Below, piece by piece: positions 3,708 through 38,499 of a stretch of 64,000 bases of DNA (positions are counted from its first letter, which is position 1; each line of letters begins with the position of its first letter). A program made the position numbers and the translations under genes. Source of the stretch: an uncultured Candidatus Rokubacteria bacterium (GTDB lineage Bacteria > Methylomirabilota > Methylomirabilia > Rokubacteriales > CSP1-6); the NCBI GenBank assembly GCA_963762145.1, contig CAVXJS010000017.1, positions 32,001 to 96,000 of the forward strand, in the 5' to 3' direction. The notes under the pieces are model-generated. The model searched no databases and was not told the DNA's origin. It worked only from the letters and a program-made list of their open reading frames with translations.

Positions 3708-3727
3708 TATTGGACCTAGGTCCACTA
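3708..3727 (+). promoter_or_regulatory. Palindromic activator site 1 (TATTGGACCTAGGTCCACTA), groES promoter
   Basis: Near-perfect 20-bp palindrome; -10-like TAGCGT 21 bp downstream (3749-3754), GGAGG RBS, ATG 3777. Confidence 0.8.
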
Positions 3728-3776
3728 CCCGATCCCCGGCCGAGCGGCTAGCGTGACGGTGGGAGGGACCGAGACC

Positions 3777-4085
3777 ATGGCTCAAGCAAAACAGATGACA
3801 CTACACCCACTGCACGACCGTGTCCTCGTCAGGCGGATCGAGGACGAACCGGCTCGCCGCGGCGCCATCATCATCCCGGACAGCGCGAAGGAGAAGCCCC
3901 AGGAGGGCAAGGTCATCGCGGTCGGCAAGGGCCGAGTGTCCGAGGCCGGCAAGAAGACCCCGCTGGACGTCAAGGCCGGGGACCGAGTGCTCTTTGGCAA
4001 GTACTCCGGCAGTGAGGTCAAGGTGAACGGCGAGGATCTCCTCATCATGAAGGAGGAGGACGTCCTCGGCATCCTCGGGGCCTGA
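3777..4085 (+). CDS. groES: Co-chaperonin GroES
   Basis: [41 protein letters not shown]. Confidence 0.97.
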
Positions 4086-4152
4086 TCCCGGGTAGCTCAG
4101 CAGCGCCGTCGCGGTTAGACAGCTCGCCAACATTCGCCGGAGGAACAAATCC

Positions 4153-5775
4153 ATGCCCAAGCAGATTGCATTCAACGAGGAAGCCCGTGCCGCGCTCCTG
4201 CGCGGCGTCAATGTCATCGCCCACGCGGTCAAGGTGACGCTGGGCCCGAAGGGTCGGAACGTCGTGATCGGCAAGAAGTTCGGGAGCCCCGTCATCACCA
4301 AGGACGGCGTGACCGTCGCCAAGGAGATCGAGCTCAAGAATCACTACGAGAACATGGGCGCCCAGATGATCAAGGAGGTCGCGTCCAAGACCTCGGACGT
4401 CGCGGGCGACGGGACCACCACCGCCACCGTCCTCGCCCAGGCCATCTTCCGTGGCGGCCTCAAGAACGTGACCGCGGGCGCCAATCCCATGGGGCTCCAG
4501 CGCGGCATCGACCAGGCGGTCGCGCAGGTGGTCCAGGAGCTGGCCAAGCTGTCGAAGTCGACCAAGGACAAGAAGGAGATCGCCCAGGTCGCTACCATCG
4601 CGGCCAACAACGACCCGACCGTTGGCGCCCTCATCGCCGAGGCCATGGAGAAGGTGGGCAAGGACGGTGTCGTCACCGTCGAGGAAGCCAAGGGGATGGA
4701 GACCACCCTCGACGTCGTCGAGGGACTGCAGTTCGACCGCGGCTACCTCTCACCCTACTTCGTGACCGACGCGGAGCGCATGGAAGCCGTCCTCGAGGAC
4801 TGCCTCATCCTCATCCACGAGAAGAAGCTCAGCGTGATGAAGGACATGCTGCCCCTGCTCGAGCAGGTCGCGCAGTCGGGCAAGCCGATCCTCATCATCG
4901 CCGAGGACATCGAGGGCGAGGCACTGGCCACCCTGGTCGTGAACAAGCTCCGCGGCACCCTGCACGCCGCCGCGGTGAAGGCCCCCGGCTTCGGCGACCG
5001 CCGGAAGGCCATGCTGGAAGACATCGCGATCCTGACCGGCGGCAAGGCCATCACCGAGGAGCTCGGCATCAAGCTCGAGAACCTGAAGCTCGAGGATCTG
5101 GGCCGGGCCAAGAAGATCGTGCTGGACAAGGACAACACCACGGTGATCGACGGGGCCGGCAAGACCGCGGCCATCGAGGGGCGCATCAAGCAGATCCGGG
5201 CCCAGATCGAGGAGACCACCTCGGACTACGACCGCGAGAAGCTGCAGGAACGGCTCGCCAAGCTGGCGGGCGGCGTGGCATTGATCAAGGTCGGGGCCGC
5301 CACCGAGACGGCCATGAAGGAGAAGAAGGCCCGGGTGGAGGACGCCCTCAACGCGACCCGGGCTGCGGTGGAGGAAGGCATCGTGCCGGGCGGCGGGGTC
5401 GCTCTCCTGCGGGCCTCGAAGGTCCTCGACACCCTGAAGCTCTCCGGCGATGAGGCGACCGGCGTCGACCTCGTCCGGCGCGCTCTCGAGGAGCCGCTGC
5501 GGCAGATCGTCCAGAATGCGGGTCTCGAGGGCTCCATCGTCGTCGAGAAGGTCCGGAGCGCCAAGGACGTGGCCTACGGCTTCGACGCCGAGTCGAACGA
5601 GTACGTGGATATGGTGCGGGCCGGAATCATCGACCCGACCAAGGTGGAGCGGGTGGCGCTGCAGCACGCCGCGTCGATCGCTTCACTGCTCCTGACCACC
5701 GAGGCGCTCATCACCGACACCCCGGAGGAGAAGACGGCCATGCCGGCCATGCCGCACGGCGGCGGCGACTTCTAA
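4153..5775 (+). CDS. groEL: Chaperonin GroEL
   Basis: [39 protein letters not shown]; 540 aa. Confidence 0.98.
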
Positions 5776-5821
5776 GCTGTCGATGCCAGCCCGGCGGCAC
5801 GGAGCCGGGCGAAGGCAGGCC

Positions 5822-5899
5822 ATGTCGATGAAGAGGGTCTACGCGGTCGCCGTCCTCGTCGTGGTGTTCACGATCCTCGCGTACCTCGAGGCCGGCTAG
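5822..5899 (+). CDS. Putative 25-aa membrane microprotein
   Basis: MSMKRVYAVAVLVVVFTILAYLEAG*: one TM helix with a basic N-terminus, just downstream of groEL; below the ORF-track cutoff. Confidence 0.4.
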   Translation: MSMKRVYAVAVLVVVFTILAYLEAG

Positions 5900-5908
5900 A
5901 GACGGCGG

Positions 5909-36543: not shown

Positions 36544-36602
36544 GGTGAGAAGCCGTGGCGGTTCGACATCGGTGGCCTTGGTAGACGGTTGAGAGCCCGC
36601 TC

Positions 36603-37637
36603 CTATGGCACCGTACCGGTGAGCTCGATCACTCGCCCGGTACGGAGGATGACGGCCTTGATCTCCTGGCCCGGTTTGAGCGTGGCCAGATGATCACGGA
36701 TCTTGACCATGGCGGCGGGGCCCGTCGCGGCCACCCCTGCGACGGACAGGATGATGTCACCGCCCAGCACGATCTGCTGGCCGTCGATGGTGACGAGGCG
36801 GGTGCCGCCGCGCAACCCCGCCTCCTCGCCCGGCGAGCCCTTGGCCACGCTCTTGACGAGGTAGCCGCTCATGTTGTTGGGGACGTTGAGCAGGTCGGCC
36901 AGGTCATCGGTGAGGAACTGCCCTTCCAGACCGCCCCAGAACGACTTCTTGGCGAGGAGGAGCTCCTGCGCGGTCTTCATGGTGACGACGAAGCCCAGGC
37001 CTTCGCTCCCGCCCGACTTCGAGATGTTGTGGCTGACGATGCCGATGACGTCGCCCGCCGCGTTGAACATGGGCCCACCCGAGTTGCCGGTGTTGATGGT
37101 GGCGTCGGTCTGGAAGAACTCGGCCATGGGCATGGTCTTGTACACCGAGTTCGGAGCCCACCGGGCGCTGATGAGGCCCGCGCTCAGCGAGTAGCTGAGG
37201 CCGTAGGGGGCCCCCACGATGTAGACCGGGTCGCCCACCCGGACCGTGTCCGAGTTGGCCATCTTCGCCACCCGGGCCGCCGCGGGCACCCGGTCGATCT
37301 GGAGCAGCGAGAGGTCCGCCGCCGGCTCGGAGGCGATCACGCGGGCCGGCATCGACTCGCCGCCCAGGAACTCGACCGTGATGTCGTTCATGGAGTGCAC
37401 CACGTGGGCCGCGGTCATGATCTTGCCGTCCGCCGAGATCAGCACGCCCGAGCCGGTCTCGTTGAAGCGCGTCTGGCCGCTGGCCGTCACCTCGCTGCCC
37501 TTGGCCCGGATCACGACCACCGACGGGGTAACCTTGCGGAACACGTCGCCGGGGGTCTGAGCCTCGGCGGCTCCCGGAATCGAGACCGCCGCCGTCACCG
37601 CCGTCACCGCCAGCACCATCGCCCACGCTGCTTTCAT
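36603..37637 (-). CDS. HtrA/DegP-like trypsin protease with PDZ
   Basis: TAAHVV, DLSLL, QTDATINTGNSGGP; C-terminal PDZ; signal peptide. Confidence 0.92.
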   Translation of the reverse strand: MKAAWAMVLAVTAVTAAVSIPGAAEAQTPGDVFRKVTPSVVVIRAKGSEVTASGQTRFNETGSGVLISADGKIMTAAHVVHSMNDITVEFLGGESMPARVIASEPAADLSLLQIDRVPAAARVAKMANSDTVRVGDPVYIVGAPYGLSYSLSAGLISARWAPNSVYKTMPMAEFFQTDATINTGNSGGPMFNAAGDVIGIVSHNISKSGGSEGLGFVVTMKTAQELLLAKKSFWGGLEGQFLTDDLADLLNVPNNMSGYLVKSVAKGSPGEEAGLRGGTRLVTIDGQQIVLGGDIILSVAGVAATGPAAMVKIRDHLATLKPGQEIKAVILRTGRVIELTGTVP

Positions 37638-37652
37638 GGCGGGCCTCCCTTC

Positions 37653-38351
37653 TTACTGAATCCAGCCCTGTTCCTGGAATCGCGGCTTCATCAGTCGGGC
37701 GATCTCCTTGGCCGTCGCCGCGGCTCTGCCCTCGATCCCGCTGCTGCCGCTCATCTCGCCGTGGGCCTTCATCCCGGTGCTCACGAGGAGGCCCGCCGGG
37801 TTACCGGTCGCGATGAGGCCGACGACTCCCACCGCCGCGCCGGGTGTCGTGTTCCCAGCGGCATCCACGGTGCCGGAGCCGAGCTTTCGCAGGCCCTGTG
37901 ACGTCATCTGGAAGCCTTCGACCGCCGTCCGGAGCTCCGACGCCCCGGCCCCGAAGCCGAGCGCCATGCGCCTGGTGGCGCTGCCCTCGTGCACCGAAAG
38001 GATGTAGCCCTTGATGATGACGTCGTTCAGCCTCGCCGGCGTGCCGATCGGGACCTCCGCGCCCGCGAGGCCCATGTCGCGGATCTCGGCGGCCAGGAGG
38101 CCGGCCAGGTGGGCGCCCAGCTGGCGGCCCGCCTGGATCTCCTGGGCGGTCTGTGGGGGGGTACCGGCAGTCTGGCTGGCAAGCTCCGGAGCATCCGCGG
38201 GCGTCGCGGCGAAGTTGTACACCAGGATGCGATTGGGCCGCGGGAGCTTGTCGGTCACGAGGATCCTTTGGTCGGCAACCTCGGTCGAGGCGCACCCCGC
38301 CATGAAAGCCAGAGCCAGCAGGCCCGAGACCATACGGCTACGAGATCTCAT
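37653..38351 (-). CDS. DUF4410-like lipoprotein
   Basis: Lipobox MAGC, ILVYNF, EGSATRRMALGFGAGAS. Confidence 0.75.
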   Translation of the reverse strand: MRSRSRMVSGLLALAFMAGCASTEVADQRILVTDKLPRPNRILVYNFAATPADAPELASQTAGTPPQTAQEIQAGRQLGAHLAGLLAAEIRDMGLAGAEVPIGTPARLNDVIIKGYILSVHEGSATRRMALGFGAGASELRTAVEGFQMTSQGLRKLGSGTVDAAGNTTPGAAVGVVGLIATGNPAGLLVSTGMKAHGEMSGSSGIEGRAAATAKEIARLMKPRFQEQGWIQ

Positions 38352-38433
38352 CGCAATCCTCCATGGCAAGACCGGTATGGTGGCGCGCGTTCATGCTGGT
38401 GACGGCAGTGTGCCGTCCAGCGCGGAACGGGTC

Positions 38434-38453
38434 AATAGGACGAAGGTGCTATC
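38434..38453 (-). promoter_or_regulatory. Palindromic site 8 (AATAGGACGAAGGTGCTATC on +)
   Basis: Degenerate consensus match; -10-like CACACT 21 bp away (38407-38412), ahead of the lipoprotein gene. Confidence 0.55.
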
Positions 38454-38479
38454 GGCCGAGCGAGCTCGGCTACTGGGAG

Positions 38480-38499
38480 GACGGGACCAACGTCCCATA
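38480..38499. promoter_or_regulatory. Palindromic site 9 (GACGGGACCAACGTCCCATA), possible auxiliary site
   Basis: GGGAC-CAAC-GTCCC core 46 bp upstream of site 8; no -10 at the usual spacing. Confidence 0.4.

Follow-up and report, generated by a model that had tools for sequence, protein, structure and literature searches.

A 20-bp dyad upstream of chaperonin, envelope and signalling genes as the predicted operator of FixJ/StyR-like response regulators in Rokubacteria

A stretch of 64,000 nucleotides from an uncultured Candidatus Rokubacteria bacterium (GCA_963762145.1, contig CAVXJS010000017.1, positions 32,001 to 96,000; hereafter the window) carries a 20-bp palindrome in nine copies, upstream of genes that include groES-groEL, mlaC and a single-domain receiver gene. 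Which protein reads this dyad, and what would it do from there? A FixJ/StyR-like response regulator, its histidine kinase and a Crp/Fnr-family regulator are all encoded among the copies. Comparison of sequences makes it very probable that a FixJ/StyR-like subfamily with the recognition helix E-K-T-[VI]-K-x-H-R uses the dyad, TATWGGAC-YWWR-GTCCWATA, as its operator. The initial annotation had proposed a class II-type activator operator read by a response regulator; promoter geometry, co-occurrence of site and regulator, and co-variation of recognition helix and site bases support this, while activation itself we infer from the geometry.

The dyad and its promoter geometry

The nine annotated 20-mers are each where they had been placed, as are the -10-like hexamers named for eight of them (six TAnnnT and two CAnnnT), with gap and strand. 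Compared with the consensus first written for them, TATTGGAC-N4-GTCCAATA, the copies have in order 1, 1, 4, 2, 3, 7, 6, 5 and 4 mismatches of 16, and a plain search recovers only four of the nine within 3 mismatches (chance mean 0.01 from 100 shuffles). They are nevertheless one coherent motif, since under a matrix derived from 49 sites that lie outside the window they are its nine highest-scoring positions, at 13.3-29.8 bits, with the next best at 6.8. The refined consensus is (T)ATWGGAC-YWWR-GTCCWAT(A).

The regulon had been described as one of nine sites; it is instead spread over the genome. Scanning with the nine-copy matrix gave 51 genome hits of at least 18 bits, where 20 symmetric matrices with shuffled columns averaged 2.2 and reached at most 12, and all 43 held-out hits lay outside called genes, genes being called by our own script at a coding fraction of 0.80. 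With the refined matrix 64 sites of at least 16 bits were obtained, 63 of them non-coding. Most stand singly, a set of 75 sites including 7 pairs no more than 140 bp apart. The enrichment 21 bp from -10 hexamers that had been predicted was also found. In the 69 held-out sites of this genome TAnnnT occurs at a gap of 21 in 22 cases and of 22 in 7, the background being 0.0024 per position, and in the held-out sites of the refined set (n=56) 29 have TAnnnT at a gap of 20-22 where 0.8 were expected. The 31 promoter sides of the held-out set face a same-strand gene within 400 bp in 19 cases, an opposite-strand gene in 3 and no called gene in 9. The same spacing is seen in other genomes, where 185 distinct sites have TAnnnT at gap 21 (102), 22 (38) or 20 (13), with no other offset above 5.

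A -10 hexamer spans -12 to -7, which places the dyad at -53 to -34. Positioned in this way from the -10, its centre is at about -43.5, adjoining the -35 region, which is the geometry of a class II activator site or a lux box. The bases past the dyad show no -35 consensus. The -10 is found on one side only in 149 of 250 sites and on both sides in 22, and in the one-sided sites the proximal half has 0.66 mean mismatches and the distal half 2.02, though GGAC of the distal half is still kept at 0.79-0.99. The sense-strand spacer of these 149 reads CAAG in 66, and the -10 is biased to TAGnnT. A better conserved proximal half at fixed spacing would be expected of an activator bound next to the polymerase. 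In the model we favour, the adjoining kinase would phosphorylate the receiver aspartate and the regulator would dimerise, each helix reading one half-site, GGAC and its flank, as in EL222 and DosR. The dimer at about -43.5, beside the -35 region, would then recruit a sigma-70-type polymerase to promoters that have a -10 and no separate -35. Sites are also found in front of the circuit's single-domain receiver gene and often its kinase gene, both of which the circuit would itself turn on. RNA runs matched at most 0.29 of the sequence words, and only as contigs.

The fixed spacing, the bias of the -10, the oriented spacer and the better conserved proximal half might also be explained if dyad and hexamer formed a bipartite promoter of an alternative sigma factor, with the proximal half GTCCAATA as its -35 element. 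Spacers of sigma-70-family promoters measure 16-19 bp. The spacer here, at 21-22 bp, exceeds that, and retention of the distal GGAC, the 22 two-sided sites and the co-variation of flank bases with the regulator helix make a sigma factor highly unlikely as the reader, although no search was made for one that co-occurs with the motif. It could equally be proposed that the same regulators bind and repress by blocking the -35 region, as the last two bases of the dyad fall on the expected -35 position and EL222 can repress when put in the core promoter (PMC5001607). The site is upstream of the spacer, not inside it, and is followed by no -35 consensus, while LuxR and EL222 activate from the same position according to that source; we regard repression as very unlikely. 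A third possibility, that the copies are ends of a mobile element or a dispersed repeat without regulatory role, would account for their grouping in islands and for the patchy distribution of the system, plasmids included. The flanks of the copies share no sequence, the -10 spacing is fixed across genomes, and at 6 of 19 other loci with groES the distance between the site and the orthologous gene is conserved although the spacer has diverged; next to no weight can be given to a repeat, and the operator reading is retained.

Within the window, copy 1 (3708..3727) is upstream of groES-groEL, with TAGCGT at 3749-3754 (+). Copy 2 (6911..6930) precedes a gene for a protein with the sequence GFNWGGW, with TACACT at 6888-6883 (-) and a gap of 22. 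Copy 3 (8118..8137) overlaps the kinase stop, as the initial annotation said, and is upstream of the single-domain receiver gene, with TACGGT at 8096-8091 (-). Copy 4 (10116..10135) is two-sided, TAGAGT at 10157-10162 (+) leading to the 10170/10508 pair and TAGCGT at 10094-10089 (-), 21 bp away, to the kinase. Copy 5 (10950..10969), with TAGACT at 10991-10996 (+), is upstream of a 49-residue Cys-rich open reading frame (ORF) and crp, and copy 6 (14562..14581), weak at 12-15 bits, is upstream of mlaC with TAGAGT at 14603-14608 (+). The remaining three have purine-type flanks. Copy 7 (16325..16344) precedes a repeat protein gene, with CACAGT at 16303-16298 (-), and copy 8 (38434..38453) the genes of a DUF4410 lipoprotein and an HtrA-like protease, with CACACT at 38412-38407 (-). 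Copy 9 (38480..38499), 46 bp from copy 8 and lacking a -10 at the usual gap, is possibly an auxiliary site. The minus-strand TAGCGT of copy 4 is new here, as are the genome-wide spread and a -10-like TATAGT at 6978-6983 (+), before the regulator gene and 47 bp from site 6911. Three site pairs have a spacing of exactly 46 bp: 38434/38480 and, elsewhere in the genome, C9:699006/699052 and C15:6990/7036.

The regulator and its recognition helix

The window regulator (7053..7682, +) consists of a receiver domain (PF00072) with Asp56 and Lys106 and a LuxR-type helix-turn-helix (HTH; PF00196). Residues D12, D13, D56 and K106 are invariant among 7 aligned proteins. Eight GerE-type HTH hits were found in the genome, three of them FixJ/StyR-like: 7053-7682 with helix EKTVKVHRARVM, C15:37548 with EKTVKVHRGRVM and C11:535721 with EQTVKIHRGHVT, the last reading EQTVKIHR. 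Of the 64 sites, 27 are within 35 kb of one of these three, in 3.4% of the genome. Residue 164 of the window protein is Ser (NKQSA), as in its closest homologue, L160; most homologues have Ile or Val there.

It had been suggested that motif and regulator orthologue should occur together, and they do. Among 60 relatives, the closest of which are titled Methylomirabilota or Rokubacteria, two or more copies of the pattern are found in 26 of 30 genomes with a FixJ/StyR-like regulator and in 4 of 30 without, and in an overlapping set of 150 phylum genomes (completeness at least 85%) at least one copy is found in 57 of 68 and 7 of 82 respectively, counts that overstate the association because the genomes are related and not independent. 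A regulator homologue was found at 420 loci; of the best 80 of these, 70 have the site, usually in the interval that separates the regulator gene from the gene of the single-domain receiver, and there are 166 hits in 1.10 Mb compared with 1.85 for controls.

These counts also bear on whether the window Crp/Fnr protein could be the reader. Crp proteins act from class II positions, and the crp gene of the window (11183-11836) is in the cluster with a site upstream. Of the 60 relatives, however, 8 have the Crp, and of the 30 relatives that carry at least two sites only 6 have it; it is in 3 of the 80 regulator loci, and 67 of the 77 Crp-free loci carry the site. In addition, crp genes are flanked by a separate dyad of CRP geometry, TGT(C/T)C-N6-GGACA. 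Crp is thus extremely unlikely to bind the 20-bp dyad, and the earlier preference for the response regulator over Crp holds. In the window the CRP-geometry dyad TGTCC-N6-GGACA stands at 11847..11862, upstream of a hybrid kinase gene at 11881, and is a candidate site of the window Crp. The same dyad is found beside Crp-family genes at L037:339, 1111 and 2910, L044:5481, L048:5344 and L184:1473 and 2245, usually 21-22 bp before a TA-starting hexamer without the final T; it is missing at 7 of 12 Crp loci, and L177 and L178 duplicate L044 and L048.

A transcription factor encoded elsewhere that travels with the two-component system might also be considered, since 7 of the 82 genomes without a regulator hit have the site and 37 of the 64 sites in this genome are more than 35 kb from all three regulators. 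Besides the kinase (75/80) and the receiver (44/80), no window gene tested is present in more than 19 of the 80 loci, a comparison confined to window genes and to incomplete draft genomes. The co-variation of helix and site and the precedent of EL222 favour a FixJ/StyR-like HTH as the reader, and we judge an unlinked factor highly improbable.

A further indication that this subfamily reads the dyad comes from comparing recognition helices with the bases nearby. For 117 distinct regulators from other genomes, the site was sought within 10 kb. It was found at 82 of 92 regulators with Lys at helix position 2 and at 1 of 14 with Ile, Ala or Val, and this single exception neighbours a Lys-type paralogue. 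A further 20 loci gave the site at 8 of 11 Lys-type regulators, at none of 8 with Val, Ala or Thr, and at one Arg-type. The flanks also vary with the helix, as counted with the flank columns taken out of the matrix beforehand. Position 4 of the half-site is T in 257 of 316 halves near KxHR-A regulators and in 29 of 68 near KxHR-G, and position 3 is C in 18 of 22 halves where the next helix residue is His, Asn or Gln, compared with 29 of 374 where it is Arg or Lys. Such co-variation suggests a recognition code by which the regulons of FixJ-family proteins might be predicted.

Within the genome itself the flanks are bimodal, 32 sites having no T half, 13 one and 19 two. Purine-type clusters surround the Gly-type paralogues (T in 0/10 and 5/32 halves), and the clusters without a FixJ-like regulator in the vicinity, those on C9 and C19, are T-type (11/14 and 9/10). 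Of the window copies, 3708, 6911, 10116 and 10950 belong to the T type and 16325, 38434 and 38480 to the purine type. The window regulator, with helix ..HRARV, is probably the reader of the T-flank sites in the window and on other contigs, and it is more likely than not that the Gly-type paralogues at C15:37548 and C11:535721 read the purine-flank sites, the three window copies of that type among them, although cross-binding is likely. The earlier proposal that 7053-7682 controls all nine sites stands as to the type of reader, a FixJ/StyR-like regulator. This protein is, however, one of three paralogues and three of the nine sites carry the flank type of the other two, so that we doubt, without dismissing the idea, that it alone serves all nine.

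Regulators with other helices have 8-4-8 dyads of their own, each seen at one or two loci: CCCTAC-N4-GTAGGG (helix EATVKEQRG), C(A/G)ATAC-N4-GTAT(C/T)G (EARVKALRG), AATTCGGC-N4-GCCGAGT (EASVKVHRQ) and CTATAC-N4-GTATAG (EITVK/EITAK). These dyads are at L199:6291 and 9818, L194:7861, L198:5935, L078:3460 and 7368, L135:10241 and L142:17587.

The pairing of site and regulator extends outside the phylum. On the 785-kb RefSeq plasmid of Paraburkholderia phenoliruptrix BR3459a all five sites are within 25 kb of a regulator with helix EKTVKVHRARV, and on a RefSeq plasmid of Paraburkholderia sp. PREW-6R two sites stand beside a regulator with EKTIKAHRARV; as sequence evidence for a range beyond the phylum these plasmids are firm. 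Near-perfect copies also flank regulators of 52-59% identity in loci whose GC is 41-62% and whose titles name Syntrophobacteraceae, Binatia, delta proteobacteria, Chitinivibrionales and other groups, and in some of this group the genome-wide counts of pattern and control are 20 and 2, 16 and 5, 14 and 3, and 11 and 2. Five loci (L001, L005, L014, L048 and L060) have titles of other phyla or archaea, and their GC of 69-72% and the tree place their regulators in Methylomirabilota; one example is an archaeal name on a locus of 69% GC with an 89% identical regulator. Those record titles may be wrong or the bins mixed.

Several results weigh against so direct a match of helix, site and promoter. 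Among 11 remaining helices sites were found at 3 of 3 with Gly and 4 of 8 with Arg, so that Lys is not strictly needed, and 2 of 4 Lys-type plasmid loci lack the site, so that it is not sufficient either. A prediction made in advance, that genomes positive for the regulator and negative for the pattern would mostly be non-Lys, failed at 4 of 11; six of the other seven have degenerate sites overlooked by the strict pattern. In a quick tree the non-Lys label changes 1-2 times and Gly 3-5 times, so that independent events are few. At 12 bits the matrix gives 108 hits against a control mean of 78, which is not above the controls, and in low-GC genomes the genome-wide pattern count does not exceed the control. 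Finally, 27 of the 56 held-out sites have no TAnnnT at a gap of 20-22, and of the 22 promoter sides for which a gene was called, 3 have it on the opposite strand.

Likeness to known regulators and their sites

The closest solved HTH is that of EL222 (best PDB match, E 1.4e-13), whose helix EKTVKMHRGLVM has EKTVK in common with EKTVKVHRARVM. Its consensus site is RGNCYWWRGNCY, as given in PMC10521638. The EKTVKxHR helix and the RGNCYWWRGNCY core that mark the likeness are both present here, the 12-bp core of the 64 sites matching exactly in 39, with one mismatch in 21 and with two in 4. EL222 differs in having a light-sensing LOV input in place of a receiver domain with a kinase, and the dyad differs in its fixed GGAC and conserved 4-bp flanks TATW...WATA. 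These flanks would supply specificity, because bare RGNCYWWRGNCY occurs 246 times in the genome. In PMC5001607, EL222 activates from a luxI scaffold in which the 20-bp lux box has been exchanged for the 18-bp EL222 site, 21 nt from TATAGT; the EL222 core in this promoter, PBlind, ends 24 nt before the -10, and here the core ends at 25-26 nt. Judging from the same construct, the lux box bound by LuxR shares the 20-bp dyad and the 21 nt to the -10; the window regulator has no autoinducer-binding domain and the site sequence is unrelated.

Over its whole length the window regulator is most like StyR in the PDB (E 2.5e-53). The architecture of StyR, TodT, TmoT and TutB is shared, as are an AC-N4-GT core dyad and the equivalents of Lys175 and Val176, which with His179 are the helix residues named in PMC5874301 along with the operator ATAAACN4GTTTAT. 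The StyR helix reads EVTVKVHRH and those here EKTVKVHRA/G, so that the position of His179 is Ala or Gly. The suggestion that the site resembles the STY box did not hold, the 64 sites differing from it at 5-10 of 12 positions, and identity with that box was rejected. Aromatic catabolism, the role of StyR and TodT targets, is not seen among the targets here, and the window kinase is not TodS-like.

DevR (DosR) is a weak match to the window regulator (E 5e-12). Lys179 and Lys182 of DosR lie in an EKTVK stretch. These two residues and Asn183 make the base contacts (PMC4082495), the DosR box of Mycobacterium tuberculosis is TTSGGGACTWWAGTCCCSAA (PMC2275270), a 20-bp dyad with a GGAC-N4-GTCC core and an A/T centre like that found here, and Dev boxes act as adjacent pairs (PMC3177182), whereas the dyads here are mostly single. 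A two-GAF kinase and a stress regulon with chaperones are further points of likeness. The sites nevertheless depart from the Dev box at 6-13 of 20 positions, and the window kinase is HisKA-type with GAF domains that have no conserved His or Cys. Orthology to DosR was considered and rejected, there being no conserved candidate heme ligand in the GAF columns of 11 aligned kinases and no DosS or DosT by sequence or among the fold matches listed. FixJ itself belongs to the same domain family and provides the best NCBIfam model for the window regulator (PRK09390), with scores for the three paralogues of 189.8, 211.8 and 209.9 bits, all below the cut-off of 255. Its helix is PRT[VI]EV, and its partner FixL is a heme-PAS kinase; the window kinase has no PAS domain, which some distant partner kinases do have.

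The operator had been called undescribed. This is accurate for the full 20-mer and the regulon, for which no relevant description was found in the literature searched, most subscription journals, regulon databases and supplements lying outside it so that a prior description is possible, but not for the 12-bp core, which is the published EL222 consensus. The type of switch is ordinary and its mechanism textbook, and the regulon appears undescribed. The dyad would provide a natural two-component setting for a site known from an optogenetic tool, and its breadth, the link to EL222 and the candidate recognition code raise it above a routine operator.

Predicted targets and signal input

Targets were gathered from 272 distinct sites with 281 downstream ORFs by crude calling. 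The clusters of first targets are the single-domain receiver (49), MlaC (14), the GFNWGGW protein (9), the cognate kinase (9), GroES (8) and a desaturase (5), then superoxide dismutase, SYLF lipoprotein and PqiA (3 each), with 124 singletons; these counts lean towards genes near the regulator because the loci were chosen around it. Elsewhere in the same genome (108 chosen proteins, 20 regions) the dyad is found before a further five mlaC genes, another groESL, an operon containing an HdeA-family gene, DUF3300-DUF2950, genes for BON, OmpA and HlyD proteins, fragments of potassium channels, 2-oxoglutarate dehydrogenase and transaldolase. In two delta-proteobacterial genomes (67 chosen proteins) they precede HdeA, PqiABC, DUF2092, DUF1269/MscS, sulfatase-family and cytochrome oxidase genes, and in P. 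phenoliruptrix they lie upstream of DUF3300-DUF2950 and a TrkA-C protein and between TerC and a cation:proton antiporter.

As its output, the regulon would provide a programme against envelope and protein stress. HdeA acts as an acid chaperone in the periplasm, and the Mla and Pqi systems move envelope lipids. From this gene content we would guess at acid or envelope/membrane stress as the trigger, a guess we hold at slightly less than even. The sensors vary (GAF, PAS, MASE1, ABC-binding), so that one trigger may not hold for all systems. The cognate kinase of the window (8126..10003, -) has an N-terminal hydrophobic helix, two GAF domains, HisKA with His404 and HATPase, and a homologue stands beside the regulator in the 75 loci counted above. 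The GAF columns of 11 aligned partner kinases contain no conserved His or Cys. A fold search with the window kinase returned generic phytochrome and kinase folds without a clue to a ligand, and no DosS or DosT match was obtained for it by sequence search or among the fold matches listed; other partner kinases have MASE1, PAS or ABC-binding domains. The single-domain receiver (7687..8070, -) is an invariant predicted target and the commonest first target, and might act in feedback or as a phosphate sink. A kinase paralogue, L117:14617-16401 (C9:694616-696400), is 57% identical to the window kinase and lies in a cluster of seven T-type sites. No FixJ-like regulator is near it, and it may feed the window regulator.

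A wider reading, which we put forward only tentatively, is of an undescribed two-component master switch, shared across phyla, with which bacteria of soil and sediment would respond to acid and envelope stress, covering MlaC, PqiABC, HdeA-like proteins, DUF3300-DUF2950, lipoproteins, channels and extra groESL copies. Its paralogues would split the regulon by single helix residues, giving a natural residue-to-base code for the HTH of EL222, StyR and DosR type in which Lys at position 2 specifies GG, Ala or Gly specifies T or purine at half-site position 4, and Arg or His/Asn specifies T or C at position 3. For an uncultured soil lineage of high abundance the assignment made here supplies a regulator with about 60 predicted promoters, and it would link genes of unassigned function (the GFNWGGW protein, DUF3300, DUF2950, DUF4410, DUF2092 and DUF1269) to one stress circuit. 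The model is open to genetic testing because this regulator type and site are found on a plasmid of the cultured legume symbiont P. phenoliruptrix.

The predicted targets in the window begin with groES-groEL (3777..5775, +), an extra copy of non-CIRCE type (CIRCE, controlling inverted repeat of chaperone expression). CIRCE control of this operon was rejected, the sole CIRCE-like match being at another copy (C10:298827). There are four groEL copies, at window 4153-5775, C10:102431, C10:299323 and C21:1174235; the dyad is found at the window copy and at C10:102431, which aligns in two pieces, and a CIRCE-like element only at C10:299323. At L018, L032, L038 and L043 an AT-rich element, AATAGTACA...TGTACTATT, is upstream of groES copies that have no dyad.

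On the minus strand the GFNWGGW small membrane protein (6476..6841), which has no Pfam family, is followed by an uncharacterised 165-residue ORF (5909..6406), and a similar protein, recognised by eye from its printed N-terminus, is the first target in other loci. The uncharacterised ORF pair 10170-10505 and 10508-10930 (10170..10930, +) follows copy 4; atlas look-ups of the GFNWGGW and 10508 proteins gave only unnamed entries or unsupported automatic names. The Cys-rich ORF (11017-11166) and the Crp/Fnr-family gene form the next target (11017..11836, +), and downstream of crp, at 11881-14328, are the hybrid GAF kinase and a fatty-acid desaturase; at 5 other loci a desaturase homologue is the first target of a dyad. 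Next come MlaC (14694..15410, +), the second commonest first target, and a small protein with a hydrophobic N-terminus and Q-D-x-R repeats (15964..16260, -), without a Pfam family. Copies 8 and 9 precede the DUF4410 lipoprotein (37653-38369) and a trypsin/PDZ protease (36603-37637), both on the minus strand (36603..38369). Elsewhere in the genome, at C19:70711 (L123:2712), a strong two-sided site stands before a 192-residue ORF that is followed by a second copy of dnaA.

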